Shown: positions 4,399-59,586, counted from the stretch's first letter. The stretch is 64,000 nt of DNA from Candidatus Latescibacterota bacterium (GCA_022822725.1 JAJEAN010000007.1:9435-73434); one strand, 5' to 3'. Made by a program: numbers and translations. The notes: a model not told the origin generated them from the letters alone.

Positions 4399-4498
4399 GC
4401 GGGACGACGTGCCGGTTTCGCGGGACGCCGTGTCGGTTTTGCGGGACGCCGTGCCGGTATCGCGGGACGCCGTGTCGGTTTCGCGGAACCCGTGTCAG
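4399..4498. repeat. tandem direct repeat, 21-bp unit x about 4.7 (GCGGGACGCCGTGYCGGTWTC)
   Basis: The motif GCGGGAC recurs at 4399, 4420, 4441, 4462 and 4483 with an exact 21-bp period. The array ends 1 nt from the acr3 stop codon (4500-4502). Confidence 0.9.
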
Positions 4499-4499
4499 C

Positions 4500-5540
4500 T
4501 TATTTGTAATACATGGCCTGGAAACGCAGGGCCACGTTGACCAGCGCGATCATGACCGGCACTTCGACGAGGGGTCCGATGACCGCCGCGAAGGCCACGC
4601 CGGATTCAATGCCGAAGACCGCCACGGCCACGGCGATGGCCAGTTCGAAATTGTTGCTCGCGGCGGTAAAGGAAAGCGTGGCGTTCTTCGAGTAGTCCGC
4701 GCCGATCTTCCTTCCCATCCAGAAGGTAATCAGGAACATGAGCACGAAGTAGACCAGGAGGGGCAGGGCGATGCGGACCACGTCCAGGGGGATGGCCACG
4801 ATCGTATCGGCTTTGAGGCTGAACATGACCACGATGGTGAACAGCAATGCCGCCAGCGTAATGGGGCTGATGCGGGGAATGAAGGTCGATTCGTACCAGT
4901 GCCGCCCCTTGATCCGCAACAGGACCAGGCGGGTCGCCATGCCGCCGAAGAAGGGGATGCCCAGGTAGATAAGCACGCTCTCCGCGATCTGCGCGATCGT
5001 AACCGGCACGACGCTGCCTTCCAGTCCGAAATAAGGCGGAAGCACCGTGATGAAGACGTAGGCGTACACGCTGTAGAAGAACACCTGGAACAGGCTGTTG
5101 AAGGCCACGAGGCCGGCGGCGTACTCCGTGTTCCCTTTCGCCAGTTCGTTCCACACGATGACCATGGCGATGCACCGGGCCAGGCCGATGAGGATGAGGC
5201 CCGTCATGTACTCGGGATGCCCGGAAAGGAAGAGCGCGGCGAGTCCGAACATCAGGATGGGGCCGACGACCCAGTTCAGGAAAAGGGACGCGCCGAGTAT
5301 GCGCACGTTGCGGAACACGTCCCACAGTTCCTCGTACTTCACCTTAGCGAGCGGGGGATACATCATCAGAATGAGCCCGATGGCGATGGGCAGATTGGTC
5401 GTGCCCACCTGTCCCATCTGGATCAGGGCGGGAACGGCCGGCGCCCAGACGCCGAGTGCGACGCCTACGCCCATGGCCAGGAAAATCCACAGGGTCAGGT
5501 ACCGGTCTCGTGCCGACAGCCGTTTCGTCGTTGTATCCAT
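4500..5540 (-). CDS. acr3: arsenite efflux transporter, ACR3 family
   Basis: The 346-aa polytopic protein has the ACR3 signature region ([53 protein letters not shown]). ATG start with a GAGAGGA Shine-Dalgarno (SD) sequence. It follows arsR-arsC. Confidence 0.9.
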
Positions 5541-5605
5541 TGTATCCTCTCAGGCGGTGTTCATCGTGACTGATCAATGGTTTTGTGCGGTGAACCGCAA
5601 AGGAG

Positions 5606-6253
5606 TCACTCGGCGCCGATCCGGGCGAACAGCCAGATCATCTCCCGGCATATCTCCCGGCATCTGTCGTCGTAGACATCTGTTTCCAGGCCCGTTCCAT
5701 CGGAGGATCCCGGATCCTCGTAGGGCAGGAGCACACGCTTGTCGGCGCCGGTAATCACCGGACAGTCGCGGTCCGCGCTCGAACAGGTCATGACCGCGCA
5801 GAATCCGTCTCCCGGGTTCGCAGGGTCCTGGAAAGTCTTGGAGTACGCGCGTATCGGCGGCAGTCCGTTCCCTGCATGAACGACGTAGACCAGGTTGTCC
5901 GCCTGGGCGTGCCTGTCGATCCGGAAACCCGCCCGTTCGATTGCCGATACGGCCGGCGGAGCGAAAGCGCTGGCTTCCGTGCCTCCGGAGAAGGCGCATA
6001 CCCGCGGGACACCGAAAAAACGCGCCGCGGTCTGTGCCAAGACCTGGGCCATCTGGCTTCTGCGGGCGTTGTGCGTGCAGATAAAGGTGAGGTGGGCCGA
6101 TTCGCCGCTTCCGACCCGCTCCGCGATGTAGGCCGAGATGGACGCCAGGGTCTCTCTGCGGTCCGGTGGAATCAGGCTGGATTCGGCCACGCGCGCCTTA
6201 AAATAGCGATCGAGTACCGGGTAGAATGCGGTATCGTGGCTGGCCTGTATCAC
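5606..6253 (-). CDS. arsC: arsenate reductase, LMW-PTP-fold ArsC with about 55-aa N-terminal extension
   Basis: CX5R P-loop CTHNARRS and downstream Cys residues typical of thioredoxin-coupled ArsC. GTG at 6251-6253 forms a GTGA overlap with the arsR stop. The longer listed ORF (to 6487) overlaps arsR and is rejected. Confidence 0.75.
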   Translation of the reverse strand: MIQASHDTAFYPVLDRYFKARVAESSLIPPDRRETLASISAYIAERVGSGESAHLTFICTHNARRSQMAQVLAQTAARFFGVPRVCAFSGGTEASAFAPPAVSAIERAGFRIDRHAQADNLVYVVHAGNGLPPIRAYSKTFQDPANPGDGFCAVMTCSSADRDCPVITGADKRVLLPYEDPGSSDGTGLETDVYDDRCREICREMIWLFARIGAE

Positions 6254-6678
6254 CGCACGTCCCCCGGCAGCAAGACCTGGCCATGCAGGACCGTATCGTC
6301 GCGATCGTCGGCCTGGAGCGCGGCAATGGAGGGCTGAGGCACACAGATCTTGCCCTGGCCGGCCAGTCCGCGCAATCGGTCGAGGTCGGCCAGGACCCGC
6401 TCGTGAACCTGGCGGGCCGAGACCAGGTAGACTGTCACGTATTTCAGGGCGATCGAGGAGTCTGTGGCCAATGCATAGTAGATCCATACCCCGTCACGGC
6501 GGGTTGTGAGCAAACCGCCCTGTTTCATCACCGCCAGGTGCCGGGAGATTTTGCCCTGGGGCATGTCCAAAACCGCCATGATCTCGCACACGCACAGTTC
6601 CCGCTCGGTCAGCAGGAACAGGATGCGGAGGCGCGTGGCGTCCGAACAGGCCTTGAATACGGCAAGATCCTTGTCCAA
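6250..6678 (-). CDS. arsR: ArsR/SmtB-family metalloregulator
   Basis: HTH with metal-site motif ELCVCEI, and DATRLRILFLL. TTG start preceded by AGGAGA SD with a 7-nt spacer. Confidence 0.85.
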   Translation of the reverse strand: MDKDLAVFKACSDATRLRILFLLTERELCVCEIMAVLDMPQGKISRHLAVMKQGGLLTTRRDGVWIYYALATDSSIALKYVTVYLVSARQVHERVLADLDRLRGLAGQGKICVPQPSIAALQADDRDDTVLHGQVLLPGDVR

Positions 6679-6708
6679 ACCGGTTTCTCCTGTGCTGAAC
6701 GATGGAAT

Positions 6709-6738
6709 TATATCCTAATATTCGAATATAAGGATATA
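6709..6738. promoter_or_regulatory. 30-bp near-perfect palindrome, candidate ArsR operator
   Basis: TATATCCTAATATTC|GAATATAAGGATATA has one mismatch between the 15-bp arms. It sits 31-60 bp upstream of the arsR start in an AT-rich divergent promoter region shared with the sulfatase gene. Confidence 0.55.
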
Positions 6739-6868
6739 GATCGATTTGTCAAGAGAAACGATGTCATCGGCATCCGTCTGTATGGGTGGACATCGGGCGA
6801 CAAGTGTTGTATATTGAACATGTCATTCCGCAACTTGTTTAATGCAGAGCCCGCCATCCGGGAGAAAC

Positions 6869-8356
6869 ATGCCGACCGGACCGCCACCGCCCCGTCCCCA
6901 CGTACTGCTCGTCTGTACCGATCACTGGCCGGGACGGTTGTTCGGCCACGCGGGACATCCGGTGATTCAGACGCCCACCCTTGACACCCTGGCACGGAGC
7001 GGCGTGCGTTTTCCCCGGGCCTACAGCGAGTGTCCGGTGTGCATCCCCGCCCGCAGGACGCTCATGACCGGCACGACCACGGCCACCCACGGCGACCGGG
7101 TGTTCAAGGTCGACAACCCCATGCCGCCGGTCCCCACCGTGGCCCAGACCTTCCGAGACAACGGATACCAGGCATACGCCGTGGGCAAGCTGCACGTTTA
7201 CCCGCAGCGGGACCGGATCGGGTTCGACGATGTGATTCTGGCCGAAGAGGGCCGTCCGCATCTCGGCGCCGTGGACGATTACGAGGTGTTTCTGGGCGAG
7301 AACGGCCACGCCGGGGAGGGATTCACCCACGGCATGAGCAACAACGAATACGGTCAGCGTCCCTGGCACCTGTCCGAGGCCATGCACGTGACCAACTGGA
7401 CCACGCGCCAGATGGCCCGGATGATCCGCCGCCGCGATCCTGCACGGCCGGGATTCTGGTACCTGTCCTACTGCCATCCCCATCCCCCGCTGACCCCGCT
7501 GCAGTGCTACCTGGACCTGTATCGCGACGAGGATCCGGGCGAGCCGTACCACGGCGACTGGGCAGAGAACCCCGACGGCCTGCCCTATGCGCTGAAGGCG
7601 GTCCGGGGCAATACCTGCGGGATGAACGACGCCCAGATCGCATGGGCGAGAAGGGCGTTCTACGCGTTATGCACCCACATCGACCACCAGCTGCGCGTGG
7701 TGATCGGCACGTTGCGGGAGGAAGGCCTGATCGACGATACCATCGTGCTCTTCACGGCCGACCACGGGGACATGCTGGGCGATCACGGTCTCTGGGCGAA
7801 ACGCCTGTATTACGAGCAGTCGGCCAACGTGCCCATGATCCTCGTGGGCCGGGCCGGCGACGACCGGGTCGGGCACAACCGCACCGACGACCGGCTCGTG
7901 GGCTGGCAGGACGTGATGCCCACGCTCCTCGATCTCGCGGGGATCGACGTGCCGGATACGGTGGATGGAATCTCCATGACGGGTGACGAGAAACGGGAAT
8001 ACCTTTACGGCGAGTGCGGCGAAAACCATCAGGCCACGCGCATGATGCACGACGGGCGGTACAAGCTGATCTACTACCCCGTGGGCAACCGGACGCAGTT
8101 ATTCGACCTCGAGCTTGACCCCGAAGAACGCCGCGATCTTTCCGGATCGTCGGAACACGCAGGGACCATGGACCGGCTGAAGGCACGGCTGGTGGACCGG
8201 ATGGCCAGCCTGGACCCGGCGTGGATTCATAACGGCGAACTGACCGGTCTGCCCGACCGGGACTACACGTTGCCGCCCAACCGGGGCCTTTCCGGCCAGC
8301 GGGGATTGCACTGGCCGCCACCGCCCACGGATCCCGGCACGTCCTATGTGCCCTGA
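6869..8356 (+). CDS. sulfatase (arylsulfatase family, Cys-type formylglycine motif)
   Basis: CIPAR (C-x-P-x-R) formylglycine motif within SECPVCIPARRTLMTG, and GKLH, ADHGDMLGDHG. ATG 6869 is preceded by GGGAG SD. No signal peptide is detected. Confidence 0.85.
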   Translation: MPTGPPPPRPHVLLVCTDHWPGRLFGHAGHPVIQTPTLDTLARSGVRFPRAYSECPVCIPARRTLMTGTTTATHGDRVFKVDNPMPPVPTVAQTFRDNGYQAYAVGKLHVYPQRDRIGFDDVILAEEGRPHLGAVDDYEVFLGENGHAGEGFTHGMSNNEYGQRPWHLSEAMHVTNWTTRQMARMIRRRDPARPGFWYLSYCHPHPPLTPLQCYLDLYRDEDPGEPYHGDWAENPDGLPYALKAVRGNTCGMNDAQIAWARRAFYALCTHIDHQLRVVIGTLREEGLIDDTIVLFTADHGDMLGDHGLWAKRLYYEQSANVPMILVGRAGDDRVGHNRTDDRLVGWQDVMPTLLDLAGIDVPDTVDGISMTGDEKREYLYGECGENHQATRMMHDGRYKLIYYPVGNRTQLFDLELDPEERRDLSGSSEHAGTMDRLKARLVDRMASLDPAWIHNGELTGLPDRDYTLPPNRGLSGQRGLHWPPPPTDPGTSYVP

Positions 8357-8377
8357 AAAAACGCGGGAGAGCTACCT

Positions 8378-9172
8378 ATGCACGCTACACGTATCCTGAT
8401 TGCGTCGGTCTTCATGTTGTGCTGGTCTCCGGCCGTTGCGGCATGGGGGCCGAACGGCCACCGCATCATAGGCCAGATCGCCGAAAACAATCTGACGGAC
8501 GCGGCCCACAAGGGCATCGCGGAACTGGTGGGACGCGCTTCGCTGGCCCAGATCGGCACCTGGGCCGACGAGATCAAGTCCGATCCTGCCTGGCGCCACG
8601 CCTCGCCCTGGCACTACGTCAACGCGCCGCCGGGTCAGGACATTGAAACGGCGAGCAAAAGTCCGCGAGGCGACGTGATCGAGGCCATTCTGCGTTTCGA
8701 GCGGGTCTTGAGGGACCCGGAGGCGGACCGGAAGGAACGGGCGGAGGCGCTTAAATTCCTGGTGCACTTCGTGGCCGACGTACATCAACCGCTTCACGTG
8801 GGTTACGCCAGCGACCGGGGCGGCAACGATATCCGGGTCCGCTGGTTCGGCGAGAGCACGAACCTTCACGCCGTATGGGACGAGCACCTCATCGAGCACC
8901 AGCGGCTGAGCTTCACGGAGTGGGTGCGTTTCTTCGGCCACGCGGAACCCGGCGAGATCGAAGCATGGCGCCGCTCGACGGTGTGGGACTGGGCCAGGGA
9001 ATCGCGCAGCATGCTGCCTGCGGTGTATGATCACGGCGGATCCCGTTCCGACAGGACGCCCTACCTGGGATACGACTACATCTTCAAACACCACGACGGC
9101 GTCAAGAAGCGTCTTCTGCAGGCCGGCATCCGGCTGAGCGGAATGTTGAACGATATATTCGCCTCGCCCTGA
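8378..9172 (+). CDS. S1/P1 family nuclease, secreted
   Basis: Signal peptide followed by the mature N-terminus AWGPNGHRIIG (Trp1 zinc ligand), and HQPLHVGY, NLHAVWD zinc-ligand motifs. Confidence 0.85.
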   Translation: MHATRILIASVFMLCWSPAVAAWGPNGHRIIGQIAENNLTDAAHKGIAELVGRASLAQIGTWADEIKSDPAWRHASPWHYVNAPPGQDIETASKSPRGDVIEAILRFERVLRDPEADRKERAEALKFLVHFVADVHQPLHVGYASDRGGNDIRVRWFGESTNLHAVWDEHLIEHQRLSFTEWVRFFGHAEPGEIEAWRRSTVWDWARESRSMLPAVYDHGGSRSDRTPYLGYDYIFKHHDGVKKRLLQAGIRLSGMLNDIFASP

Positions 9173-9181
9173 TCCTCTTCG

Positions 9182-10033
9182 TCAACCTCCTGTCAGCATG
9201 ATCAATCCCGCAACCAGCACCAGCCCCGTGATGGTGATCTGAAGGTAGCGTTCCGGGAGCCTGCGGGACATCCGCACGCCCACGGGCACGCCCACCAGCG
9301 ATCCGGCGGCCATGGTCACGGCGATGGCGAGATCCAGCTGGCCGCTGCCTGCGTAGATGATCGAACTCGTGAAGGTCAGCGCCAGCGCGATGAAGATCGA
9401 GGAGCCCACCGTGTCCACCGCGGTGAGGCGGAAGATGATGATCATCAGCGGTACGATCAGGATGCCGCTCCCCACCGAGGTGGAGGCGATCAACCCCCCG
9501 ATGACGGCGCCCAGCGCCACCGCAATGCCGATCTTCGCACCCCTGACCCGGGCGGAAATCCGTTGGCCTGCCTGCCCCGCCTGGCCCGTCCGGCCCTTTA
9601 CCGCGCGGGAAACCGGCCACAGGAACATGTGCCACAGGATCAGCAGGCCCGAGAGAATGACCACCGCCGCGATGAACTGGCGAAGATTCGTCTGAAGTTC
9701 GCGCCAGGCCGGGTCGGCCGGGTCCATGTCCCCGGCGTACCCCGAGATCCAGAGGGCGACGGCCACGGAGACGGGCACCGCGCCCGCCAGGAAATACGCC
9801 GAAGTGCGGAACCGGATGGTCCCCTGCCTGAAATGGAAGAACACGGCCGGGAGCTTGCTGAGGCAGGAATAGAGATGGGCGGTGCCCACCGCCACCGTGG
9901 ACGGCAGGCCGAATCCCAGCGTCAGAACGGGCAGCAGGAGGACCCCGCCACCGATGCCGGTCATGCCGATGCAGGCGCCGATCAGCGCGCCGGACACGAG
10001 TTGTACGACGGTATTCAGGACATCCAGGTCCAT
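9182..10033 (-). CDS. TauE/SafE-family sulfite/anion exporter
   Basis: The 283-aa, about 8-TM protein has two TauE repeats (GIGGGVLLLPVLTLGF and GSGILIVPLMIIIF). Confidence 0.7.
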   Translation of the reverse strand: MDLDVLNTVVQLVSGALIGACIGMTGIGGGVLLLPVLTLGFGLPSTVAVGTAHLYSCLSKLPAVFFHFRQGTIRFRTSAYFLAGAVPVSVAVALWISGYAGDMDPADPAWRELQTNLRQFIAAVVILSGLLILWHMFLWPVSRAVKGRTGQAGQAGQRISARVRGAKIGIAVALGAVIGGLIASTSVGSGILIVPLMIIIFRLTAVDTVGSSIFIALALTFTSSIIYAGSGQLDLAIAVTMAAGSLVGVPVGVRMSRRLPERYLQITITGLVLVAGLIMLTGG

Positions 10034-10146
10034 AGAAGGCGTAACGGCTCCCTATCGCGCGGGCACTAACCGCTCCCGATTACCTTGCGCTCCCACCCAT
10101 TTTTTTCTTGCCACGCCCCTGCAAACGATGCAAACATGACCTTGCG

Positions 10147-10806
10147 ATGATTCCGACCAAACCATACGCGGCCACGGACCTCGGCATCTTCCGGTTTCTC
10201 GACGGGAAGTTGCTCGTATACCTGGTCGAGTTGAAGATCGAACCCTTCGTGGGTCGTTATTCGCTGCCCGGCACCCTGGTGCTCGAGACAGAAGACCTGG
10301 AGGCGGCGGTGCGGCGCGCCTACCGCGAGGCAACTGGCCGGTCGGGCGCCTACTTCGAGCAGGTCTACACCTTCTCCGCCATCGACCGGGATCCCGGGAG
10401 ACGAACGATCTCGACGGCCTACATGGGGTTTCCCGACCGCCCGGGCGAGCCCTTTGAACCGGTAGACAAGTACCGCGCGGGGGAATGGTTCTACGTCAAT
10501 GACACCCCGTCGCTGGCATATGATCACAATGAGATTCTGAAGGTGTGCACGGACAGGATCGCGGCAAAACTGAATTACACCAATATCGCGCTGCTGCTGC
10601 TTCCCGGTGAATTCACGATGGCGGAACTGCAGTGCGTGTATGAACAGGGGCTGGGTGAAAGGCTGGAATCGGGGAGTTTCAGCGACAAGGTCCTGTCACT
10701 GGATATGATCAAAGCCACCGGCGGGGAACGTACCGCAGAGAACACCCAGCCGGTTCCCCTCTACCGCGCCGTGCACCGGGAACTGCAGGAAATCCCCTTC
10801 ATCTGA
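10147..10806 (+). CDS. NrtR-like transcriptional regulator (degenerate Nudix domain plus C-terminal winged helix)
   Basis: The Nudix box is degenerate (GTLVLETEDLEAAVRRAYREATG, lacking the catalytic EE). The C-terminus FTMAELQCVYEQGLGERLESGSFSDKVLSLDMI matches the NrtR wHTH. ATG 10147 is chosen because the listed start 10108 is TTG. Confidence 0.7.
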   Translation: MIPTKPYAATDLGIFRFLDGKLLVYLVELKIEPFVGRYSLPGTLVLETEDLEAAVRRAYREATGRSGAYFEQVYTFSAIDRDPGRRTISTAYMGFPDRPGEPFEPVDKYRAGEWFYVNDTPSLAYDHNEILKVCTDRIAAKLNYTNIALLLLPGEFTMAELQCVYEQGLGERLESGSFSDKVLSLDMIKATGGERTAENTQPVPLYRAVHRELQEIPFI

Positions 10807-10816
10807 TACGCGGCTT

Positions 10817-10858
10817 CATCCCGCGCGTCGTCTCAACCCGCGCGTCGTCTCATCCCGC
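10817..10858. repeat. tandem direct repeat, 17-bp unit x 2.4 (CAYCCCGCGCGTCGTCT)
   Basis: It fills the spacer between the convergent stops of the NrtR-like gene (10806) and korB (10858-10860). Confidence 0.85.
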
Positions 10859-11778: not shown

Positions 11779-11790
11779 GTTGAAGACTCC

Positions 11791-13641: not shown

Positions 13642-13781
13642 CGGTATCTCCTGTCTGACCGTCGTTGACAACCCGGTTCTACTGGTCGGGAATGCGTATT
13701 TTCGTCAGATGTCGTATTGAAGTAACGGGAACTTACAAAATAAACAGCCCGCCCGGTGATGTCAACCATTCTAGTTTGGAA

Positions 13782-13880
13782 TTGACGCTTGGCGCCGCGA
13801 CGATGAATCGGGATTTGACGCTTGACGCCGCGACGATAAAACGGGATTTGACGCTTGACGCCGCGACGAAGGTGACGTAC
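13782..13880. repeat. tandem direct repeat, 33-bp unit x 3, each unit carrying TTGACGCTTGACG
   Basis: Unit starts at 13782, 13815 and 13848. Each copy has a TTGACG-N16-TAAAAC promoter-like spacing on the plus strand. Confidence 0.9.
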
Positions 13881-13983
13881 CTTTAATACGAAGGTTAGGA
13901 AACGGCTCGCGGTTAGCTACGTGCTTCGAGTCGGCATTCGTTAACCGGTTTCCCGGTCTTCGCCTTTTTTGTTTTTTTATACA

Positions 13984-14016
13984 GGACCCCGGTTCCGGCC
14001 GGGGTCTTGTTTTTTT
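13984..14016 (+). terminator. intrinsic terminator (GC hairpin plus U-tract), plus strand
   Basis: GGACCCCGG-ttcc-GGCCGGGGTC followed by TTGTTTTTTT. A weaker hairpin plus T-run lies at 13944-13980. No plus-strand CDS precedes it. Confidence 0.6.
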
Positions 14017-14077
14017 GAGTCAAACTGCTCCGGCAACAGCCCCGCCCCCGGACTCCTGCTGCCGGGAAAAAGACCGG

Positions 14078-14106
14078 TTGACGCTACAGCAATTGCGGGG
14101 TAATTA
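14078..14106 (+). promoter_or_regulatory. sigma70-like promoter candidate (TTGACG-N17-TAATTA) upstream of the PhyH gene
   Basis: Spacing and hexamers are as stated. It uses the same -35 hexamer as the 33-bp repeat. Confidence 0.3.
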
Positions 14107-14280: not shown

Positions 14281-15054
14281 TTGAACGGCGCCGATATCGT
14301 AAGCAAATACCGGGACGACGGCTACGTGGTCCTGCCCGGGGTCCTCGACGGCGGCCTGACCGCCGAGGCCCAGGGCCATATCGAGTGGATGGGAAAGAAG
14401 TACCCCGACGTCCGGCCCGAGCAGTACCATCACCACCTCATCGTGGACGATCCGTTCTGGATCCGCCTCTGCACCGACCCCCGGCTCATCGACGTCATCG
14501 AACCTTTTCTTGGGCCCGACATCGCACTCTTCGCGGCACATTACATCAGCAAGCCGCCCGGGGACGGGCAGCCGGTGCTCTGGCACCAGGACGGAAACTA
14601 CTGGCCGCTTGAGCCCATGAAGGTCATTACCATCTGGCTGGCCGTGGACGACTCGACCCCGGAGAACGGATGCATGCGGGTCATCCCCGGCAGCCACAAG
14701 GACCAGGAACTGCACCGGCACCGTAGATCCGAAGGGGGAAACGTATTGAGTTCGGAGCTTGATTTGAAGGTGGATGAATCCAGGGCGGTCGATGTCGTCG
14801 TGCCGGCGGGCGGCGTATCCCTGCACGATCCCTACCTGATACACGGTTCGAAGGCCAACCTTTCCGACCGGCGCCGGTGCGGACTGACCCTCCGGTACAT
14901 TCCCACGACCACGCGCATCAAGCGCGAGAACTTCCCCGCCTACCTGTGCCGGGGCAAGGCCGTGGACGGAATCAACCACTACCCTCCGCTTCCCCGGTTC
15001 AGGCCCGGCGATCACTACCCGTTCGAGGGGTGCGACCGGCCTCCCTGGCAGTGA
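14281..15054 (+). CDS. phytanoyl-CoA dioxygenase (PhyH) family Fe(II)/2OG oxygenase
   Basis: WHQDGNYW (HxD) and LIHGSKAN (distal His) facial-triad motifs. TTG start 5 nt after a GGGGAGGTG SD. Confidence 0.8.
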   Translation: MNGADIVSKYRDDGYVVLPGVLDGGLTAEAQGHIEWMGKKYPDVRPEQYHHHLIVDDPFWIRLCTDPRLIDVIEPFLGPDIALFAAHYISKPPGDGQPVLWHQDGNYWPLEPMKVITIWLAVDDSTPENGCMRVIPGSHKDQELHRHRRSEGGNVLSSELDLKVDESRAVDVVVPAGGVSLHDPYLIHGSKANLSDRRRCGLTLRYIPTTTRIKRENFPAYLCRGKAVDGINHYPPLPRFRPGDHYPFEGCDRPPWQ

Positions 15055-15094
15055 CGCCGCTCGGTACTGGTGGCCTCCCTGGCAATGACGCCGC
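15036..15094. repeat. direct repeat (23-bp copies, 36-bp period); first copy contains the PhyH stop codon
   Basis: GGCCTCCCTGGCAGTGACGCCGC at 15036-15058 and GGCCTCCCTGGCAATGACGCCGC at 15072-15094. In the second copy the TGA has become AAT-GAC. Confidence 0.85.
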
Positions 15095-19798: not shown

Positions 19799-20653
19799 AT
19801 GTCAAGTCAGGATTTCACGCCGGGACGCGCGGACGGGAGGATGAAAGGGCACATGCGTCGATTCAGTCTGTTGCATCCGCTCTGGATGGCCTTCTACGAA
19901 GGGGCCATTTACGAGGATGCGGCCCGGCACTGGCGAAACCGAACCTTTCTTTACCTCCTATTGCTGCTGGCGCTGACCTGGATCCCCTTCACCATCCAGA
20001 TGCAGAACGAGGTGGACGACTGGGTCAGCCGGGAAGCGCCTTTCTATATCGACCAGGTCCCTGATCTCAGCCTCTCCGGCGGCGAACTCACCTCGTCCTC
20101 ATCCGCGCCGACGCTCCTGCGTGACCGGGAAGGGACGGTGCTGGCCGTCATCGACCCGACCGGGCAGTACACCAGCCTGGATGACACCGAGGCGCCGGTG
20201 CTGGTAACGCGCACCCAGATCTTCATCCGCGGAGAGGGCGACCTGGTCGACGTAACGAACCTGCCGGAAGGACCTCCGGAGACGCTGACCCGGGAGGACC
20301 TGTACGTGATCGCCGACTGGACCCGGTCCCTGGTCAATACGCTGCTCTTTCCCGTCCTGCTCGTGCTGTCCTACGCGTACCGGACCGTCCAGACGCTGCT
20401 GTACGCCTACGTGGCTTCCTTTTTCACGGCGTCCGCCGGAGCGTCCGCCGGAGGAGTGCTGCCGTACCGTACGCTCCTGAACCTGGCCATCATCGCCATT
20501 ACGCCGGCCGTCGTGCTGGACACCGTGCACATGCTCATGGAATCTCCACTCCCGGACTGGTTCTGGTGGCCGGCATGCGTACTGCTTTCCCTGGGCTATC
20601 TGCGGTTCGGCATCCGGGTCACGCTGGACGCCGAAAGGCAGGCGGCAGCCTGA
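19799..20653 (+). CDS. hypothetical membrane protein (DUF1189-like)
   Basis: The 284-aa protein has an N-terminal TM, a soluble middle region and C-terminal TMs. The stop is embedded in the heptamer repeat. Confidence 0.5.
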   Translation: MSSQDFTPGRADGRMKGHMRRFSLLHPLWMAFYEGAIYEDAARHWRNRTFLYLLLLLALTWIPFTIQMQNEVDDWVSREAPFYIDQVPDLSLSGGELTSSSSAPTLLRDREGTVLAVIDPTGQYTSLDDTEAPVLVTRTQIFIRGEGDLVDVTNLPEGPPETLTREDLYVIADWTRSLVNTLLFPVLLVLSYAYRTVQTLLYAYVASFFTASAGASAGGVLPYRTLLNLAIIAITPAVVLDTVHMLMESPLPDWFWWPACVLLSLGYLRFGIRVTLDAERQAAA

Positions 20654-20677
20654 AGCCTGAAGCCTGAAGCCTGAAGC
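20647..20677. repeat. heptamer tandem repeat (AGCCTGA) x 4.3
   Basis: The first unit contains the stop codon (TGA 20651-20653) of the upstream membrane-protein gene. Confidence 0.9.
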
Positions 20678-22459: not shown

Positions 22460-22501
22460 TTGGCCGCGGACCCGAAAGAGTTGGCCGCGGACCCGAAAGA
22501 G
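22460..22501. repeat. tandem direct repeat, 21-bp x 2 (TTGGCCGCGGACCCGAAAGAG)
   Basis: It starts on the nucleotide after the ThuA-Gfo stop codon. Confidence 0.9.
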
Positions 22502-26807: not shown

Positions 26808-26824
26808 TGCTTTGCTCCTGTTCC

Positions 26825-26915
26825 GGCAGCCCGGTCAGCCCGGACAGCTCAATCAGCCTGGCAGCCCGGATAGCCCGGACAGCCCGGACAGCCCGGACAG
26901 CTCGATCAGCCCGGA
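26825..26915. repeat. degenerate 12-bp tandem repeat (CAGCCCGGACAG-like) x about 7
   Basis: It lies 3' of the darA stop and upstream of the Gfo/Idh/MocA operon. Confidence 0.7.
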
Positions 26916-34725: not shown

Positions 34726-34790
34726 GTTGGTCTGCTCCTTTGCCTGTACGGTCCACTGCCTGTACGGTCCACGACCGCTGTGTATAGCCG

Positions 34791-43777: not shown

Positions 43778-43815
43778 CATGTCAAGCAAGAATGAGCATG
43801 TCAAGCAAGAATGAC
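43778..43815. repeat. tandem direct repeat, 19-bp x 2 (CATGTCAAGCAAGAATGAS)
   Basis: It lies 32 nt 3' of the PmoA-like gene stop. Confidence 0.85.
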
Positions 43816-43847: not shown

Positions 43848-44780
43848 TTACGCCGGGGATCGCTCTTCGGATGCGGACACGTAGGAAAGGTACAGGTCTT
43901 CGATTTCCGCTGCGCCGGCAACCTCGTCTAGCACCAGGAATCCGTAACGGAGATGAAGGCTGTCCGACGCGCTGATCGTAAGGTCTTCTTCCATGAGCGG
44001 CCCGGTGCCCAGGAGATTGCGTCGGGTAAACCAGTGCACCGGGTGGCGAAGGTTCCGCGGATGGTCCATCATCGCCACCATGCCCCCGCGGGCCCCTGCT
44101 GCGGCGACCCACCGGTCCCGCGTTCTCATGATGGCTTCGTGGCCGCTGCGGCCGCTGGCGCTGGTATGGTGCGCATCGGCGAACGGCGGCCCCATGCGCA
44201 GGATCAGCCCGCTGTAACGGGCGGCGCGCGACGCGCCCAGGGTGACTGCTCCCTCCACGGGGGTGATCACCGAGTCGATGAGCCAGAGGCAGCCGCTGAC
44301 CGAGGCGGTCTCCAGGAAATTGAACCGGCGTGCTTCCCTGATTACCGGGCGGCCGTTGCGGTCCAGCCAGGTCAGGCACTCGTCGACGGCGACGCCGGAC
44401 GCGAGGTCGGATACCTCCGTGAATCCATCGTGGCGCTGAATGCCGTGGCTGCCGGGTACGGGAACGTACTTTCCCTGTTCCGGAAGGTACCAGGAACCGC
44501 CCCAGAAGTTCGAATCGTTTACGTGTACCCAGCCGAAATACAACCCCGTGTGCCAGGTGTGGTCTTCGGGCCGGTATTCGCTGATCAAGCCGCCGGAGGG
44601 GGTGTAAACCGGATGAAAACAGGGTTTGGGCGATTCGTCTTCCGGCACCGGGTCGGTCGCGGCGTTGTATCGGCCGAGCAGCTGACGGCCGGTCCCGCCC
44701 GTGAAAACTTCGAAGCCCTTCCCTTCGTTGACTTCGAGACGAAGATGGCTTAGGTTTCTCTTGAATGCGTCCCGGGGCAT
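43848..44780 (-). CDS. PmoA-like (DUF6807) family protein, hypothetical
   Basis: 310 aa, no signal peptide. WHTGLYFGW and the overall pattern recall the DUF6807 family often found next to Gfo/Idh/MocA genes. Recognised at low resolution only. Confidence 0.45.
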   Translation of the reverse strand: MPRDAFKRNLSHLRLEVNEGKGFEVFTGGTGRQLLGRYNAATDPVPEDESPKPCFHPVYTPSGGLISEYRPEDHTWHTGLYFGWVHVNDSNFWGGSWYLPEQGKYVPVPGSHGIQRHDGFTEVSDLASGVAVDECLTWLDRNGRPVIREARRFNFLETASVSGCLWLIDSVITPVEGAVTLGASRAARYSGLILRMGPPFADAHHTSASGRSGHEAIMRTRDRWVAAAGARGGMVAMMDHPRNLRHPVHWFTRRNLLGTGPLMEEDLTISASDSLHLRYGFLVLDEVAGAAEIEDLYLSYVSASEERSPA

Positions 44781-44880
44781 GGCTGGTCCTGTTGAATGGC
44801 TGGGCCGGTGAAATGGCTGGTCCGGTCACCTGGCTGGTCCGGTCACCTGGCTGGACCGCTGAAATTACTGGTCCGGTTTA
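44779..44880. repeat. 17-bp tandem repeat x about 6 (ATGGCTGGTCCGGTCAC-like) in the divergent promoter region
   Basis: It begins at the PmoA-like start codon and ends 47 bp before the TonB-receptor start. Confidence 0.8.
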
Positions 44881-48051: not shown

Positions 48052-48093
48052 GCCCCCGGCTGGCTCGCGCCGCCCCCCGGCTGGCTCGTGCCG
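48052..48093. repeat. tandem direct repeat, 19-20-bp x 2 (CCCGGCTGGCTCGYGCCG)
   Basis: It lies 9 nt 3' of the DUF4249 stop. Confidence 0.8.
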
Positions 48094-51127: not shown

Positions 51128-51138
51128 GGAGCACGGCG

Positions 51139-51178
51139 TACTCAGGTCGTAAGGTATACTCAGGTCGTAAGGTATACA
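51139..51178. repeat. tandem direct repeat, 18-bp x 2.2 (TACTCAGGTCGTAAGGTA)
   Basis: It lies 12 nt 3' of the dinG stop and just upstream of the ubiA start. Confidence 0.85.
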
Positions 51179-51191
51179 CAGGTTGCACGAT

Positions 51192-55099: not shown

Positions 55100-55999
55100 C
55101 TACCGCCGGGTGTACCGCGCCAGTAGACTGGAGATCTCCCGGGTCAGTTCGCTCGTCTTGTCGCCGTCGCGCGAAAGCGTGCTTTCAAGGGCGTCCGCCA
55201 GGACGGCGATCTCATCGCAGAAGGCCTTGTGCTCCCGGGCATGCCTTGAAAGCGCGGCGCGCAGGTCCGCGAGTAACTCCGCCGCCCTCACATCGGGTTC
55301 GACGGGATCCGCCACGGCTTCCGCGTGTTCCGCAGGATCGACCGCGGTTTCCTCGCGTTCTCCGGGGTCAACCTCAGCTTCCGCTTGCTCTTCGGGGTGC
55401 ACCTCGGTTTCCACCTCGGAATGCCCGGCGATTTGAAGTTCTTCTTCCTCGGCGTACCCGGCGTCTTGTGGCCGCGCAAATCCCGCCGGCTCCTCGCCTT
55501 TCGCCGTTTCCGCAACGTCCGCCGTTTCCGCGCCTACCGCCGTTTCCTCGCCTTCCGCCGACTCCTCGCCTTTCGACGGCTCTCCACCTACCGCCGCTTC
55601 TCCGTCAACCGCTGCTTCCGCAATTTCGTTAGCCCATCCAGGCGTCTCTTCCATGTGGTATTCGGACTCTGAACCACCGGAGGCATTCGTCTCGTCTGGT
55701 CCATTTACGGGTTGCGCATCGGAAGCAGACTCCGGTGATGTCTCCAATTCGTGGGGCGCCCGGCCGTATTGCCGGCGCGGCATACCGTTCGAATCAGGAT
55801 TCGCCTCAGGATTCGCCGGAGCCGGCCGGACGATCGGCGGATGCATGAACAGGTCGATGGACTCCCGGGACACGAAGTACCTGCCGCCCTCCATGTAGTA
55901 CTCCAGCTTGCCGTCTTCGCACATCCGCGTCACCTGGTTGGGCAACCTCTTCATCATTTCCGCCGTTTCCGTCAAGGACATCCACTGCGTCTCCGGCAT
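55100..55999 (-). CDS. excisionase-type HTH (HTH_17-like) DNA-binding protein with long acidic Glu/Ala repeat region
   Basis: N-terminal MSLTETAEMMKRLPNQVTRMCEDGKLEYYMEGGRYFVSRESIDLF. Central ETAVGAETADVAETAKGEE repeats, visible as DNA repeats at 55480-55620. C-terminal coiled-coil. Confidence 0.55.
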   Translation of the reverse strand: MPETQWMSLTETAEMMKRLPNQVTRMCEDGKLEYYMEGGRYFVSRESIDLFMHPPIVRPAPANPEANPDSNGMPRRQYGRAPHELETSPESASDAQPVNGPDETNASGGSESEYHMEETPGWANEIAEAAVDGEAAVGGEPSKGEESAEGEETAVGAETADVAETAKGEEPAGFARPQDAGYAEEEELQIAGHSEVETEVHPEEQAEAEVDPGEREETAVDPAEHAEAVADPVEPDVRAAELLADLRAALSRHAREHKAFCDEIAVLADALESTLSRDGDKTSELTREISSLLARYTRR

Positions 56000-57823: not shown

Positions 57824-58042
57824 GTTAACTGGCCGTAGTGTTTCCTGATGCCTGTTCTATAATCCAATAGTCGGAAGAAGATCATCGATCTCGCACGCTG
57901 CCGTCCGAAGTCGCTGCGCAACCCTTCGTTTGTCCGGAACATCAGACAAATCGCACTGGTTTTTTCCGACGATTGGGTTATAATCCGGTTTAAAGCCGGT
58001 AGTCGCCCGAGATATTCCAGAAACCACGAGTTCGGTGCAAGC

Positions 58043-58762
58043 GTGACCGCAGCGTATTCCATCCTGCAGATCATCAGCGTATTGGTCTTCACCCTGCTGT
58101 TCGGGATGTCGGCCATGTTGCTGTCTCCGTTCAATCCTTCGGGCCGGCTGGTACACTGGTTCGCCCGTTGGTGGGCGCGAACCCTGTTATGGGTAGGCCG
58201 CGTGCCGGTCCGCCTCGAAGGGCTGGAAAACATCCCCGGGGGGCAGCCGTGTGTGCTGGTCTCCAATCATGCCAGTGCGGCGGACATACCCATCCTGTTC
58301 GGTTCGCTGCCCATCCAGTTCAGGATCATCGCCAAGGACTCCCTCTTCCACATACCGATCCTGGGATGGTGCATGCGCCTGGCAGGGTACATCAGCATCA
58401 ACCGTACTAATCCGAAGAAAGCCATGCGGAGTCTGCGGAAAGCGGCACGGCAGATCAGGGACGGATATCCCGCCGTGGTCTTCCCGGAAGGCACGAGATC
58501 GAGGACCGGTGAACTGCAGCCGTTCAAGGCCGGCGCATTCCTGCTGGCCATTGAATCGGGCGTGCCCGTCGTGCCGGTGGGGATTTCAGGCAGCTTCGAC
58601 ATCCTCGTGCGCGGCAGCATGAGAATCCGGCCGGATGCACGGGTCGCCGTGCGCATCGGTCCACCCATAAAAACCAACGGATACACCTCGAAGGACCGGC
58701 GCGGGTTGGCCGAAAAGGCCCGGATGGCCGTTGAAGACTGCCTGCAGCCGGATGGACCGTAG
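58043..58762 (+). CDS. plsC: 1-acyl-sn-glycerol-3-phosphate acyltransferase
   Basis: NHASAAD (HX4D) and FPEGTRS motifs. N-terminal TM. GTG start. Confidence 0.85.
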   Translation: MTAAYSILQIISVLVFTLLFGMSAMLLSPFNPSGRLVHWFARWWARTLLWVGRVPVRLEGLENIPGGQPCVLVSNHASAADIPILFGSLPIQFRIIAKDSLFHIPILGWCMRLAGYISINRTNPKKAMRSLRKAARQIRDGYPAVVFPEGTRSRTGELQPFKAGAFLLAIESGVPVVPVGISGSFDILVRGSMRIRPDARVAVRIGPPIKTNGYTSKDRRGLAEKARMAVEDCLQPDGP

Positions 58763-58988
58763 GGATGGCGCGCCAGGTCGATTCGGTGTGTTGGATATGG
58801 ATGAATCCCTGTGCGACATGGTCGTCTCCGACTTGAGAGCGTTGTCGGACCGGGTGATCGGACTGGAAGTCTGACGGTCGGAAGATCAGTGGGAAACCGG
58901 CTGTCGAATCAATATCGGGAAGAGATCCGGGTTTCGTCCTGCTGATCGAAGGCGATCAATCACTACCAACCCTATAAGGAGCTGTGCC

Positions 58989-59528
58989 ATGAAACGACGT
59001 CTTGTCACGTGGATTCCGGGTATGTTCATCGCCGTCTTCGCCCTGGGCTGTACGGAGAGCGTCCCGCCAGCCGAGGAAGCATCTCCCGCTATGGATGCGG
59101 CCACGACCGAGAGCGATATGGAGCACAGCCTGCTGGCGGAGCACATGGCCGCGGAAGCCATGCTGACGGCGCACTTCGTGGCCGCCGCGGTCAAGGCGGG
59201 CATGAGTGTGGAAGAGATTAACGGCGTGCTGGCCTCGGTCGCCGACGGATCCGCCATCAGTGAATTCTGGGTCAGCGACGAGAACGGTGCGGTAGTTTAC
59301 ACGAATATAACCGGGATGGAATTCGCCTTCCCCACCGACCCTGAGGCCGATTCCCAGGCGGCGCCGTTCTCGACGCTGCTGACCGGCGAACAGTCTGTCG
59401 TCGACCAGGATTTCATGCCCCGCGCAGTGGACGGCATGGTCTATAAGTACGTTGGCGCGGCCGGGGTGGACCAGGCGCGCATCGTGCAGGTGGGGGTGGC
59501 CGCGCCGACCGCGTCGGATTCGCCCTGA
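58989..59528 (+). CDS. hypothetical lipoprotein
   Basis: Signal peptide with lipobox ALGCTE. 179 aa, acidic. Confidence 0.5.
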   Translation: MKRRLVTWIPGMFIAVFALGCTESVPPAEEASPAMDAATTESDMEHSLLAEHMAAEAMLTAHFVAAAVKAGMSVEEINGVLASVADGSAISEFWVSDENGAVVYTNITGMEFAFPTDPEADSQAAPFSTLLTGEQSVVDQDFMPRAVDGMVYKYVGAAGVDQARIVQVGVAAPTASDSP

Positions 59529-59586
59529 TCGTCCGGCACGCCCTGCCCTGATCGTCCGGCACGTCCTGCCCTGATCGTCCGGCACG
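59523..59586. repeat. tandem direct repeat, 23-bp x 2.8 (CCCTGATCGTCCGGCACGNCCTG)
   Basis: The first unit contains the lipoprotein stop codon (TGA 59526-59528). Each copy carries a TGA. Confidence 0.9.

Follow-up and report, generated by a model that had tools for sequence, protein, structure and literature searches.

Short tandem arrays beside stop codons in a Candidatus Latescibacterota genome and its sister species: probable duplication, slippage and selection

A 64,000-nt stretch of a Candidatus Latescibacterota genome (JAJEAN010000007.1:9435-73434; the window) contains 13 intergenic tandem arrays with mutually unrelated units, most of them at or across stop codons. As young tandem repeats of minisatellite type, the arrays represent a familiar class of feature, present here at unusual density. 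They are best explained, with a probability of about 60%, by spontaneous, GC-favoured tandem duplication and copy-number slippage, with products retained where harmless and no new genetic element involved.

Arrays were located with TRF (score ≥50) and by direct inspection, and were placed relative to stop codons on a gene map that agrees with database gene calls. All 12 arrays listed in a preliminary description of the window were present; TRF called 11 of these at the coordinates given below and missed the spaced direct repeat at 15036-15094. A 13th intergenic array (34741-34772) was absent from that list. Intergenic arrays are given without strand; percentages are matches between copies.

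4398..4494: 21-bp unit x4.7, 87% (TRF, sequence); 5 nt 3' of the stop of an SBF-family transporter gene (4500-5540, minus strand), upstream of a promoter-like site (4377-4348, minus strand) and of the start (4296) of the EamA gene; the ENA scaffold carries an identical array.
10816..10858: 17-bp unit x2.5, 92% (TRF, sequence, gene map); between the convergent NUDIX/NrtR-like (10147-10806, plus strand) and PFOR-beta-like (10858-11778, minus strand) genes.
13778..13869: 33-bp unit x2.8, 93% (TRF); divergent gap 13642-14280, a 5' region rather than a gene 3' end, directly upstream of a conserved sRNA-like element.
15036..15094: spaced direct repeat, period 35, ~1.7 copies (sequence inspection); spans the PhyH stop in the convergent gap with a MurT-like gene (15101-16459, minus strand).
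20647..20677: AGCCTGA x4.4, 100% (TRF, sequence); TGA of the DUF1189 gene (20651-20653) inside the first unit.
22460..22501: 21-bp unit x2.0, 100%, no junction microhomology (TRF, sequence); begins at the first base past the TGA of a ThuA/GFO_IDH gene (20795-22459), 11 nt ahead of the start of a conserved 79-aa ORF.
26823..26915: 9-bp unit x10.6, 75% (TRF, gene map); between the stop of a CdAMP_rec gene (26934-27263, minus strand) and the start of a GFO_IDH gene (25707-26807, minus strand).
34741..34772: 16-bp unit x2.0, 100% (TRF); thiS-thiG gap, 18 nt past the thiS stop and 15 nt ahead of the thiG start.
43778..43814: 19-bp unit x1.9, 100% (TRF, gene map); 33 nt 3' of the stop of a DUF6807 gene (43848-44780, minus strand).
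44779..44877: 17-bp unit x5.8, 79% (TRF, gene map); divergent gap, beginning at the DUF6807 start codon, which is copied in each unit (CAT on the plus strand).
48053..48093: 21-bp unit x2.0, 95% (TRF, gene map); 9 nt past the stop of a DUF4249 gene (47162-48043), in a gap whose 95 nt ahead of the helicase start are conserved.
51139..51183: 18-bp unit x2.5, 96% (TRF, sequence); in the gap from the DinG-like helicase stop (51127) to the UbiA start (51192); the unit comes from the stop, the spacer, and the start and opening codons of the gene that follows, with ATA in the upstream copies where the start codon has ATG.
59522..59587: 23-bp unit x2.9, 95% (TRF, sequence); TGA (59526-59528) of a 179-aa gene (58989-59528) inside the first unit.
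20429..20453, plus strand: in-frame 12-bp duplication x2.1, 100% (TRF), within the DUF1189 gene; a 12-bp insertion relative to sister locus L005.
55483..55575, minus strand: in-frame 36-bp coding repeat x2.6, 75% (TRF), within an HTH_17 protein gene (55100-55999, minus strand).

Ten of the 12 listed arrays, the number given in the preliminary description, either include a stop codon or lie ≤33 nt from one; 13778 and 44779 occupy divergent gaps at gene 5' ends. The stops placed inside the AGCCTGA heptamer and the 23-bp unit were located correctly, and the PhyH TGA (15052-15054) is indeed duplicated and mutated, being copied as AATGAC ~35 nt downstream. The claim for the 17-bp array also holds: it takes up most of the 51-bp gap (10807-10857) between two convergent genes. 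Best pairwise identities between units (all rotations, both strands) were 0.44-0.86, the chance level for short GC-rich units; no dispersed copy of any unit was found within the 64-kb window and no array matched Rfam. The initial view that the arrays do not form one REP or MITE family was upheld.

A second (ENA) assembly aligned to the window over 32.4 kb with zero mismatches, and differed only by two additional heptamers at 20647..20677 (6.4 copies, no other difference nearby) and one additional 21-mer at 22460..22501 (3 copies). Copy number at these two arrays excepted, the arrays were identical in two other assemblies. Breaks of the k=31 Logan contigs fall within both arrays (contig L003 ends inside the first), and the exact copy number at each is uncertain because De Bruijn assemblers can merge the copies of short perfect repeats. 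These breaks and copy-number differences would be expected of assembly or sequencing artefacts, a reading that retains almost no probability and is already refuted as to the existence of the arrays: 11 arrays are identical across independent assemblies, every array is shorter than a read, older arrays carry substitutions between copies, and closed long-read chromosomes (L007, L011, L012 and L014) contain similar, often larger arrays.

Sister species were compared at 17 syntenic loci from MAGs labelled Gemmatimonadota or Latescibacterota, closed long-read chromosomes included (13 species for region 8.5-30 kb, 6 for region 38-61 kb); these loci are not independent, because the data come from two orthologous regions only. 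The same gaps carried independent duplications with differing units and copy numbers, or none, and many spanned a stop. The gap orthologous to 10816..10858 is 16-38 bp and repeat-free in most species, with different arrays in L008 (134 bp, 16-bp unit x4.2) and L014 (136 bp). L012 has the 13778 unit twice and L009 once. Several sister species carry 1.1-1.3 kb insertions in the same divergent gap (13641-14281). The gap orthologous to 15036..15094 is 9-12 bp in L006, L011, L013 and L015; the PhyH stop is spanned by independent 18-bp units in L005 (x2), L008 (x6) and L012 (x2.7) and by a 35-bp unit in L007 (x2.7), and in L010 the stop of the opposite, MurT-like gene is duplicated. At the 20647 locus, sister species have 1-6 diverged heptamers, with stop-spanning duplications of 22 bp in L014 and 82 bp in L010. 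The 22460 gap retains its ancestral length of 32 bp in 8 species, and L004, L006 and L008 each have their own distinct duplication. These three also have shorter 9-mer arrays in the 26823 gap, where L014 has a 32-bp unit and L010 (x3.7) and L011 (x2) a stop-including 19-bp unit.

In region 38-61 kb, the 43778 unit is single-copy in 5 of 5 sister loci, and other arrays adjoin the same DUF6807 stop (43848) in L166 (17-bp x2.8) and L168 (67-bp x2.0). The 44779 gap is 62 bp with one copy in sister species. The stop-proximal half of the 48053 gap is again the part altered in L169 (43-bp unit x2.1) and L168 (another insertion). Stepwise growth was evident in the 51127-51192 gap: 10 bp (L167, L169), 28 bp (L166), 46 bp (L168, L170) and 64 bp (window). 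The sister loci lack the 59522 array; in this gap L169 carries an 18-bp unit x2.9, with a roughly 9-bp sub-repeat visible (GTCCGTGTT/GTCCGGTTT), and L168 a roughly 15-bp duplication spanning the stop. HTH_17 orthologues carry other in-frame arrays (L166, 54 bp x2.4; L168, 36 bp x2.2), and a 15-bp array upstream of the HU-TPR gene, a 5'-end array, is present in all sister loci. Between L010 and L011 (575 substitutions in 15.4 kb), 6 of 6 indels ≥6 bp were tandem copy changes, five intergenic (four adjoining stops) and one in frame in a C-terminal tail. The recurrent local duplication proposed in the preliminary description is borne out by independent units in the same gaps of sister species and by copy number being the sole assembly difference over 32.4 kb.

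Proximity to stops was evaluated by collapsing the arrays, after which non-coding DNA made up 4.7 kb of the 63.5 kb, and simulating uniform duplications that were retained only when sparing coding sequence and start zones. The simulation put 26% of the retained duplications ≤12 nt from a stop and 37% ≤35 nt; in the window 8/13 (62%; p=0.007) and 11/13 (p=0.0006) were observed, above the chance level. The stop-side excess remaining over this simple filter model is ~2-3-fold. In co-directional gaps of this clade the pull towards stops was significant (18:4, stop to start side), whereas stop bias was absent in control Poribacteria (24:23) and distant loci (14:13), for which gene maps came from our own simple gene caller; selection therefore does not produce such a bias universally. 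Recognisable tandem-type indels lay nearest a stop in 19 cases and nearest a start in 3, versus ~35 and 27 for other indels. Arrays per gap in the window were 2/7 (convergent), 2/7 (divergent) and 9/44 (co-directional); across the clade, convergent gaps held 11/30 arrays in 10% of non-coding bases. Young intergenic arrays in region 8.5-30 kb reached ~7x GC-matched controls per non-coding kb and in-frame coding arrays only ~1.5x, a poor fit to a global rate increase. Region 38-61 kb, by contrast, has many coding arrays.

Among coding arrays in L166-L170, 20 of 21 periods were divisible by 3 (p=4e-9), and non-coding periods were mixed. The coding repeat at 55483..55575 is a product of the same duplication process as the intergenic arrays, filtered by reading frame. 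The sole exact out-of-frame coding 'array' (22214-22235) was rejected as a duplication. Start-proximal DNA is AT-richer and length-constrained over the 30-40 nt ahead of the next start: 8% of bases ≤40 nt from starts lay opposite alignment gaps, versus 18-21% elsewhere in non-coding DNA, and arrays in co-directional gaps usually end ~30-38 nt ahead of the next start. Non-coding DNA >40 nt from gene ends had 21% of bases opposite gaps, identity of 0.78 (below the 0.82 of third codon positions) and few arrays. Arrays were the least conserved sequence class (identity 0.68, 40% of bases opposite gaps). GC content was 66% in arrays, 61% on the stop side and 53-55% in start-side and distal non-coding DNA. 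Among sister species, array number followed GC3 (rho 0.64, p 0.018), from 10 arrays in 21 kb in L014 (GC3 0.87) to almost none (0-1) in L013 and L015 (GC3 0.75-0.76). Junction microhomology of the youngest two-copy duplications was 0-5 bp (about half 0-1 bp, some 3-5 bp), in line with the mixture described for tandem duplications in bacteria (bioRxiv 10.64898/2026.02.28.708716), and the in-gene breakpoints of stop-spanning units were spread over 1 to 48 nt without clustering.

Predicted RNA folds showed no excess structure over shuffles in 13 of 14 cases (z -1.9 to +2.2). The outlier and sole array with strong predicted structure, 44779-44880 (z -5.1), is at a gene 5' end, so a terminator or RNA-structure role is unsupported, as is the selection for 3' repeat structures that had been suggested. 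Nor did anything link the duplications to stalled-ribosome or transcription termination sites, where slippage had been proposed. The one clear intrinsic terminator described was found at 13981-14010, followed by a T-run; terminator-like sites in 1-20000 (17, versus 12.8 ± 4.3 expected) were not above shuffled sequence.

We infer a replication-slippage or microhomology mechanism. Short tandem duplications of 7-82 bp would arise spontaneously in replication, with or without short junction microhomology, and the duplicated unit would expand or contract via slippage or unequal exchange. Such events would occur genome-wide, at a raised rate in this GC-rich lineage, and most products would be lost to purifying selection. 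A duplication running from the last codons to past the stop would leave the protein unchanged, because the first copy still terminates at its own stop, and one directly after the stop would disturb nothing. Within genes, in-frame copies alone survive, and the distances between promoter, leader and ribosome site are under constraint directly ahead of starts. Ancestral gaps here are about 9-35 bp; with only ~10-35 bp available, nearly every tolerated duplication touches a stop codon. The GC-richer stop side probably raises the local duplication rate as well. The selection filter is supported by the 20/21 in-frame periods, the scarcity of alignment gaps on the start side and the ATA for ATG in copied start codons.

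Published work has tandem duplication strongly promoted by GC-rich microhomology, and such duplications giving rise to tandem repeats (bioRxiv 10.64898/2026.02.28.708716), with which the rise of array load with GC3 agrees; microhomology-mediated tandem duplications were first described in S. pombe (PMC8639346). The arrays resemble these in that a local single-copy sequence is doubled head to tail and then becomes multi-copy, reversibly and favoured by GC, in the copy-number differences between near-identical genomes and in the 3-5 bp microhomology of some young events, but not in the 0-1 bp of about half of the youngest. The text of that preprint (10.64898/2026.02.28.708716) does not mention intergenic regions or stop codons. 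A DetectRepeats survey of 5374 genomes found prokaryotic tandem repeats enriched intergenically on both sides of genes (PMC12418385). Likewise, repeats here are scarcer in coding DNA and commoner downstream of stops and upstream of starts; the 18:4 stop-side skew, not seen in controls, and the ~7x density set them apart. TAACTGA heptamer direct repeats occur at ~170 loci in Beggiatoaceae, cyanobacteria and Bacteroidetes, mostly directly upstream of start codons, with 13 BOGUAY sets overlapping an upstream stop (PMC4679880). The AGCCTGA array similarly is a stop-carrying heptamer varying in 7-nt steps between assemblies and species, but at a single locus and with an NNCCTGA unit from the gene's own last codons.

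REP/BIME elements of enterobacteria and pseudomonads lie after stop codons, often between convergent genes. MIRUs are found in such places too, and MIRU-VNTRs occupy gaps within operons, where their units can overlap the stop and start codons. REPs belong to a conserved, dispersed family of palindromes able to form hairpins. Arrays here also follow stops, some between convergent genes, and the unit in the 51127-51192 gap overlaps flanking stop and start codons as MIRUs do; minisatellite-size units, short co-directional gaps, a GC-rich genome and variable copy number are shared with MIRU-VNTRs of Mycobacterium tuberculosis (PMC3635867). Such placement, and the 1.1-1.3 kb insertions in the divergent gap, might suggest a mobile or dispersed repeat family (REP/BIME-like or MITEs) or its footprints, including long target-site duplications from insertion-sequence excision. 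This is very improbable and largely refuted. MIRUs form one family (40-100 bp units, ~40 loci), whereas each locus here has its own unit copied from local ancestral sequence, flanking gene ends included; in contrast to REPs, the arrays are mutually unrelated, non-palindromic and unstructured. No unit pair is related or recurs at a second locus in 64 kb, terminal inverted repeats are absent, and heptamer units and up to 10 copies do not fit target-site duplications.

Repeated hits on the same gaps in many species could instead mark selected functional elements, such as terminator substitutes, mRNA 3' stabilisers, insulating spacers between convergent or coupled genes, or copy-number-tuned regulatory sites. 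Promoter-like TTGACG motifs are repeated in the 13778 array, which lies upstream of the sRNA-like element, the 44779 array is strongly structured by prediction and lies between two divergent genes, and intergenic repeats have been suggested as a source of regulatory variation (PMC12418385). Function is nevertheless improbable for units that are unrelated within and between species and form the least conserved class; many species lack an array in a given gap with flanking genes intact, L013 and L015 nearly lack them altogether, and stop-side arrays have neither excess RNA structure nor U-tracts.

Several results count against duplication filtered by selection: the simple simulation gives too few arrays near stops, distal non-coding DNA tolerates indels yet is array-poor, tandem-type indels are far more stop-skewed than other indels, coding arrays in region 8.5-30 kb are raised much less than intergenic ones, and the stop bias is confined to this clade. 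The first three results, the clade-specificity of the bias, the convergent-gap share and the chance-level number of terminator-like sites would favour a true hot spot of mutation at the 3' ends of genes, which we regard as unlikely. There, once the ribosome has left at the stop codon, RNA polymerase would pause, backtrack or await Rho in a genome poor in intrinsic terminators, and replisome collisions or R-loops would provoke template switching, with short duplications as the product. Some repair feature peculiar to the lineage might increase their rate; the adjacent DinG-family helicase, without the recognisable N-terminal exonuclease domain of distant homologues, is a lead only. However, per-gap frequencies in the window are equal, three orthologous gaps supply the whole convergent-gap signal, 5' ends and gene interiors (in frame) have arrays too, in-gene breakpoints are spread, and the GC difference between stop and start sides is a simpler cause.

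The earlier interpretation is partly supported. We infer that selection and composition, rather than a dedicated process, place the arrays at stops; geometry and selection account for the greater part of the stop association. The ~2-3-fold residual may reflect a mutational component at gene 3' ends. The density of the arrays and their stop-side concentration are lineage-specific observations made here.

TRF was run on the window (64 kb, 63% GC) and returned 14 arrays at a score of at least 50, with periods of 7-36 (51 for one) and 1.9-10.6 copies. These arrays, named below by their start coordinate, consist of head-to-tail copies of a unit of ~7-100 bp, as do VNTRs and minisatellites. Eleven of the 12 arrays in the preliminary description were recovered at this score; 15036-15094, a spaced direct repeat of period 35, was seen by reading the sequence. 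An additional intergenic array, absent from that description, was found at 34741-34772 in the thiS-thiG gap (16 bp x2, exact, no junction microhomology). Genes were mapped from codon statistics (59 genes, 91-92% coding), and the mapped stop codons were the same as those of database gene calls on three matching contigs; look-up of the gene at 61617-62630 gave no record. The 11-bp exact x2 'repeat' at 22214-22235 in gene 20795-22459 is no duplication, having arisen by two point substitutions with the same length in sister species, and low-scoring out-of-frame TRF rows in GC-rich coding DNA are therefore best disregarded.

Placement of the 12 previously described arrays on the gene map (window start coordinates)
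15036, 20647, 59522: stop codon inside the array (3 of 12)
10816, 22460: array abutting the stop codon (2 of 12)
4398, 26823, 43778, 48053, 51139: array 5-33 nt from the stop codon (5 of 12)
13778, 44779: array in a divergent gap at a gene 5' end (2 of 12)

The start codon of the 44779 array's own gene is copied within that array. The association of arrays with stop codons proposed in the preliminary description was thus borne out by TRF, sequence reading and the gene map, and is statistically real (see below).

Copy number was compared between independent assemblies. The Logan contig of run SRR16351688 matched window 26359-61127 at 100%, and a second assembly of the window (ENA scaffold ERZ23491617 scaffold_2) covered 1-32438 with 0 mismatches in 32.4 kb and two differences only. 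The sole unstable points between assemblies were the heptamer array 20647 (4.4 copies in the window vs 6.4 in the ENA scaffold) and the 21-mer array 22460 (2 vs 3 copies), and a short Logan contig ended inside both. This break is no proof of heterogeneity, because perfect arrays exceeding k plus one period give loops or breaks in a k=31 graph; the copy difference and contig break may reflect real heterogeneity or assembler collapse, and copy numbers at both loci are uncertain. Assembly artefact as the source of the arrays was ruled out by the ENA and Logan assemblies and by long-read sister genomes.

A genome scan with the MR_MLE protein yielded 12 syntenic species at 82-91% nucleotide identity over window 8.5-30 kb (region 1; loci L004-L015). 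All 12 are MAGs labelled Gemmatimonadetes, Latescibacterota or plain 'bacterium', several being closed chromosomes of 3.7-3.9 Mb, and isolate prefixes common to Poribacteria MAGs of the same projects point to sponge hosts. The same spacers carry independent duplications across these species. The gap at the PhyH stop is 9-12 bp in four species, and elsewhere holds an 18-bp stop-containing unit (x2 in L005, x6 in L008, x2.7 in L012) or a 35-bp unit (x2.7 in L007); in L010 the stop of the opposite gene is duplicated. The gap 3' of gene 20795-22459 is 32 bp in eight species and has received four different duplications (window, L004, L006 and L008). At 20653 the gap contains 1-6 diverged heptamers across sister species, with a 22-bp stop-spanning duplication in L014 and an 82-bp duplication in L010 that copies the gene's last ~50 nt. 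Between L010 and L011 there are 575 substitutions over 15.4 kb and six indels of at least 6 bp, all of them tandem copy changes (3.7 vs 2 copies in one array, plus other cases); five are intergenic, four of these adjoining stops, and the sixth is an in-frame change to a C-terminal tail.

Helicase orthologues led to five further syntenic loci of ~88% identity over window 38-61 kb (region 2; L166-L170). Window arrays 43778, 44779, 48053 and 59522 were single-copy or absent in all five, and at those same stops the species carried arrays of their own (17 bp x2.8 in L166, 67 bp x2.0 in L168, 43 bp x2.1 in L169). Further examples of such arrays are one of 20 bp x2.2 that abuts a stop in L170 and, in L168, a 37-bp duplication across the stop in the 7-bp convergent gap. 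The helicase-UbiA gap widens by 18-bp steps (10, 28, 46 and 64 bp), the unit comprising stop, spacer and start codon, with ATA replacing ATG in upstream copies. Copy number therefore varied within the same flanks, as in VNTRs, at 20647, at 22460, between L010 and L011, and in the 10/28/46/64 bp series. The recurrent local duplication process suggested in the preliminary description is well supported by these independent events in the same gaps. Sites at 5' ends are not immune, since a 15-bp array lies upstream of the HU-TPR gene in all species.

Of 21 coding arrays in the region-2 loci, 20 had a period divisible by 3 (p=4e-9). Species-specific, high-identity in-frame arrays (9-63 bp units) were seen in genes for DUF6807, HTH_17, DUF2851, a HAD hydrolase and a 190-220-aa protein (e.g., L168 20904-20971, L166 21239-21391, L169 19390-19461 and window 55483-55575). 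The HTH_17 gene appears split into shorter ORFs in L169 and L170. The HAD-family hydrolase gene (~250 aa), between the acyltransferase and 179-aa genes, is present in 5/5 sister loci at about 20375-21250; the window has only a 226-bp gap there (58763-58988), and the gene appears deleted.

Positional bias was evaluated against a simulation. Non-coding DNA makes up 8.5% of the window, and confinement of arrays to it is expected because coding DNA cannot hold out-of-frame duplications. Arrays were collapsed and duplications with the observed periods placed uniformly, and each was kept if the gene was uninterrupted and the start zone (0-40 nt) untouched. The simulation expects 16-17% of arrays to cross a stop, 25-26% to fall no more than 12 nt from one and 35-37% no more than 35 nt; the counts observed at these two distances were 8/13 (p=0.007) and 11/13 (p=0.0006), a 2-3-fold underprediction of stop-side arrays by this simple filter. 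In co-directional gaps the array was nearer the stop than the start in 7/9 cases in the window and 11/13 in sister species (total 18/22, sign test p=0.004). Controls had no skew: the stop:start ratio was 24:23 for the Poribacteria loci and 14:13 for those from distant metagenomes. The stop was touched or overlapped by 22/42 arrays here vs 7/94 in controls (p=2e-8). Among tandem-type indels over seven species pairs, 19 were nearest a stop and 3 nearest a start. Distal non-coding DNA tolerates indels, as 21% of its bases lie opposite gaps and its identity is below that of third codon positions, yet it contains few arrays.

Density of arrays (TRF score at least 50; arrays per Mb)
Window: 219
Region-1 sister loci: 152
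Region-2 sister loci: about 297
Poribacteria loci: 79
Distant metagenome loci: 61

The distant metagenome loci came from a contig scan with the helicase, which provided distant relatives only (<=43% identity). Young arrays (>=95% identity) occurred at 0.83 per non-coding kb here vs 0.12 in controls of >=60% GC and 0.11-0.20 in the remaining controls (p=1e-4). In-frame coding arrays (codon-shuffled expectation, 14.5 per Mb) were ~1.5 times as frequent as in controls in region 1 (GC-matched) and ~6 times in region 2; judged by these arrays, the answer as to a global or a 3'-specific rate increase differs by region. Across 13 loci, array count rose with GC3 (rho 0.64, p 0.018), from 0-1 arrays in L013 and L015 (GC3 0.75-0.76) to 10 arrays in 21 kb in L014 (GC3 0.87). 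Arrays are 66% GC, the stop side 61%, and start-side and distal non-coding DNA 53-55%. A propensity rising with GC content is also characteristic of microhomology-mediated tandem duplications (MTDs); the relation here is correlative only.

RNA folding was carried out for each array, taking the strand that is sense for the upstream gene. Folds were no stabler than dinucleotide shuffles in 13/14 (z -1.9 to +2.2), the sole structured array being 44779-44880 (z -5.1) at a gene 5' end, and a T-run or better-than-shuffle fold was found in no stop-side array. Terminator-like sites in 1-20000 were at chance level (17 vs 12.8 +/- 4.3 expected); within the arrays of that interval the scan picked up nothing beyond a weak 5-pair stem in the 4398 array. 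No array matched Rfam 15 at gathering score, the only window match being a TPP riboswitch. Together, folding, terminator scan and Rfam spoke against a terminator or RNA-structure role, and the arrays lack the GC-rich hairpin and U-tract that mark intrinsic terminators at transcription-unit 3' ends. The preliminary suggestion of selected 3' repeat structures was accordingly not supported, nor was a link to ribosome stalling. Unit C-richness (rut-like) on the sense strand, judged by eye, showed no consistent bias, and no sequence class was less conserved than the arrays (identity 0.68, gaps opposite 40% of bases).

The units proved unrelated, as previously described, with no other copies in the window. 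A dispersed REP/BIME or MITE family was ruled out: every unit was compared with every other and further copies were sought, and no unit had a second locus at <=3 mismatches, barring 3 isolated chance matches to 16-17-nt units. REP/BIME and MITE units are palindromic or hairpin-forming or have terminal inverted repeats, and only 44779-44880 is structured here. MIRUs are one related unit family at many operon gaps, whereas these units are locus-specific and derive from local ancestral sequence. In the TAACTGA type one specific heptamer recurs across many intergenic sites, in most cases immediately upstream of starts; here there is a single heptamer array, of another sequence (AGCCTGA), placed at a stop with the following start 117 nt away. 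Literature searches turned up no account of stop-spanning duplications treated as a class.

Junctions of the youngest, exact two-copy arrays (sample ~12) had 0-5 bp of microhomology, with 0-1 bp in about half (e.g., 22460, 34741, L008 15907, L011 15956) and 3-5 bp in others (51139, L005 5942, L005 20636, L014 21036). In MTDs the duplicated segment is flanked by a short direct repeat, so that the array is two units plus one arm. The mix seen here is that reported for bacterial tandem duplications, which have been described as occurring universally, being favoured by GC and seeding multi-copy repeats (bioRxiv 10.64898/2026.02.28.708716). In prokaryotic intergenic DNA, tandem repeats are enriched on both sides of genes (PMC12418385).

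The stop-side pattern is probably accounted for by selection plus composition acting on duplications formed by slippage (probability about 0.6). Three ordinary contributors to the skew are stop-inclusive neutrality, start constraint and GC. A duplication including the stop leaves the protein intact and selection blind to the copy, so each gene end offers about one period length of neutral target at any gap size; ancestral gaps measure just 9-35 bp. Length is constrained over the 30-40 nt that precede a start: 8% of start-proximal bases lie opposite gaps vs 18-21% elsewhere, and arrays stop ~30-38 nt short of the next start. The GC-richer stop side would add the third contribution.

A genuine mutational bias at gene 3' ends, which might arise where polymerase stalls once the ribosome is released or through a repair trait particular to the lineage, would accommodate the 2-3-fold shortfall of the simulation, the scarcity of arrays in indel-tolerant distal DNA and the unskewed controls; we consider it unlikely, in an analysis that covered two orthologous regions. 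Function, mobile elements and artefact taken together are more improbable. A narrower proposal, slightly more doubtful again, is that part of the stop-side excess is mutational, duplications forming preferentially in the first tens of nt past the translation stop. RNA polymerase without a trailing ribosome could stall there and collide with replication, and a lineage-specific repair deficit could act alongside or instead. From its domain content, a candidate for such a deficit is the DinG-family helicase that adjoins two arrays and has no recognisable exonuclease domain.

Other elements in the window
48236-51127 (+): DinG-family helicase, 963 aa, first ~260 residues without a Pfam match
36183-36279 (-): TPP riboswitch (Rfam RF00059, 69.9 bits vs gathering score 54.3) upstream of the thiamine operon at 33314-36150 (DAO/ThiO-like, ThiS, ThiG and TMP-TENI genes)
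13896-14016 (+): conserved non-coding element, ~120 nt, in divergent gap 13642-14280
28716-28731: 16-bp insertion unique to the window, in divergent promoter gap 28639-28785
16460-16494: 35-bp gap between co-directional minus-strand genes

Helicase homologues at <=45% identity have a DnaQ-like exonuclease domain (PF00929) in the N-terminal stretch that lacks a match here, and close relatives (>=48% identity) also lack a match; a helicase of this form may bear on the handling of replication-transcription conflict. The 13896-14016 element contains two hairpins with a U-run after each; the second corresponds to the one clear terminator of the preliminary description, confirmed at 13981-14010. Conservation of the element across six sister species is 81-89%, its terminator stem shows compensatory changes, and Rfam has no match to it; the element has the look of a small RNA, with the 33-bp array as its promoter region. 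The orthologous gap has an extra 1.1-1.3 kb in L007 (3792-5080), L015 (4355-5507), L012 and L014. Gaps at 11778, 16459, 25706, 27263 and 28638 (the divergent promoter gap) are constant in length in all species and look functionally tight. Apart from the window's insertion, gap 28639-28785 is highly conserved and length-invariant (130-133 bp in 12 species). Gap 16460-16494 keeps its exact length in 13/13 species, and the conserved inverted repeat within it (GGTTGATCG...GGGGAATCAACC) may be a signal for coupling or processing.

In this new lineage the arrays are tandem duplications of an ordinary kind, unusually dense and quick to turn over; there is a small chance that part of the pattern stems from a genuine mutational process at gene ends. 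Mutation and selection jointly yield a striking positional pattern: in a compact GC-rich genome, stop-spanning duplications are invisible to the protein and so pile up at gene ends, where they turn over faster than point substitutions. The array loci are ready strain markers for these uncultured bacteria, which, judging by record names and projects in common, appear sponge-associated. At these loci short-read assemblies fragment or get the copy number wrong, and gene-caller errors at starts and stops can stem from arrays. If the residual stop-side excess turns out to be mutational in origin, this lineage would offer a natural system in which to study how duplications form where transcription units end; gene ends would in that case be duplication hot spots in their own right, and the arrays a record of transcription-replication conflict.
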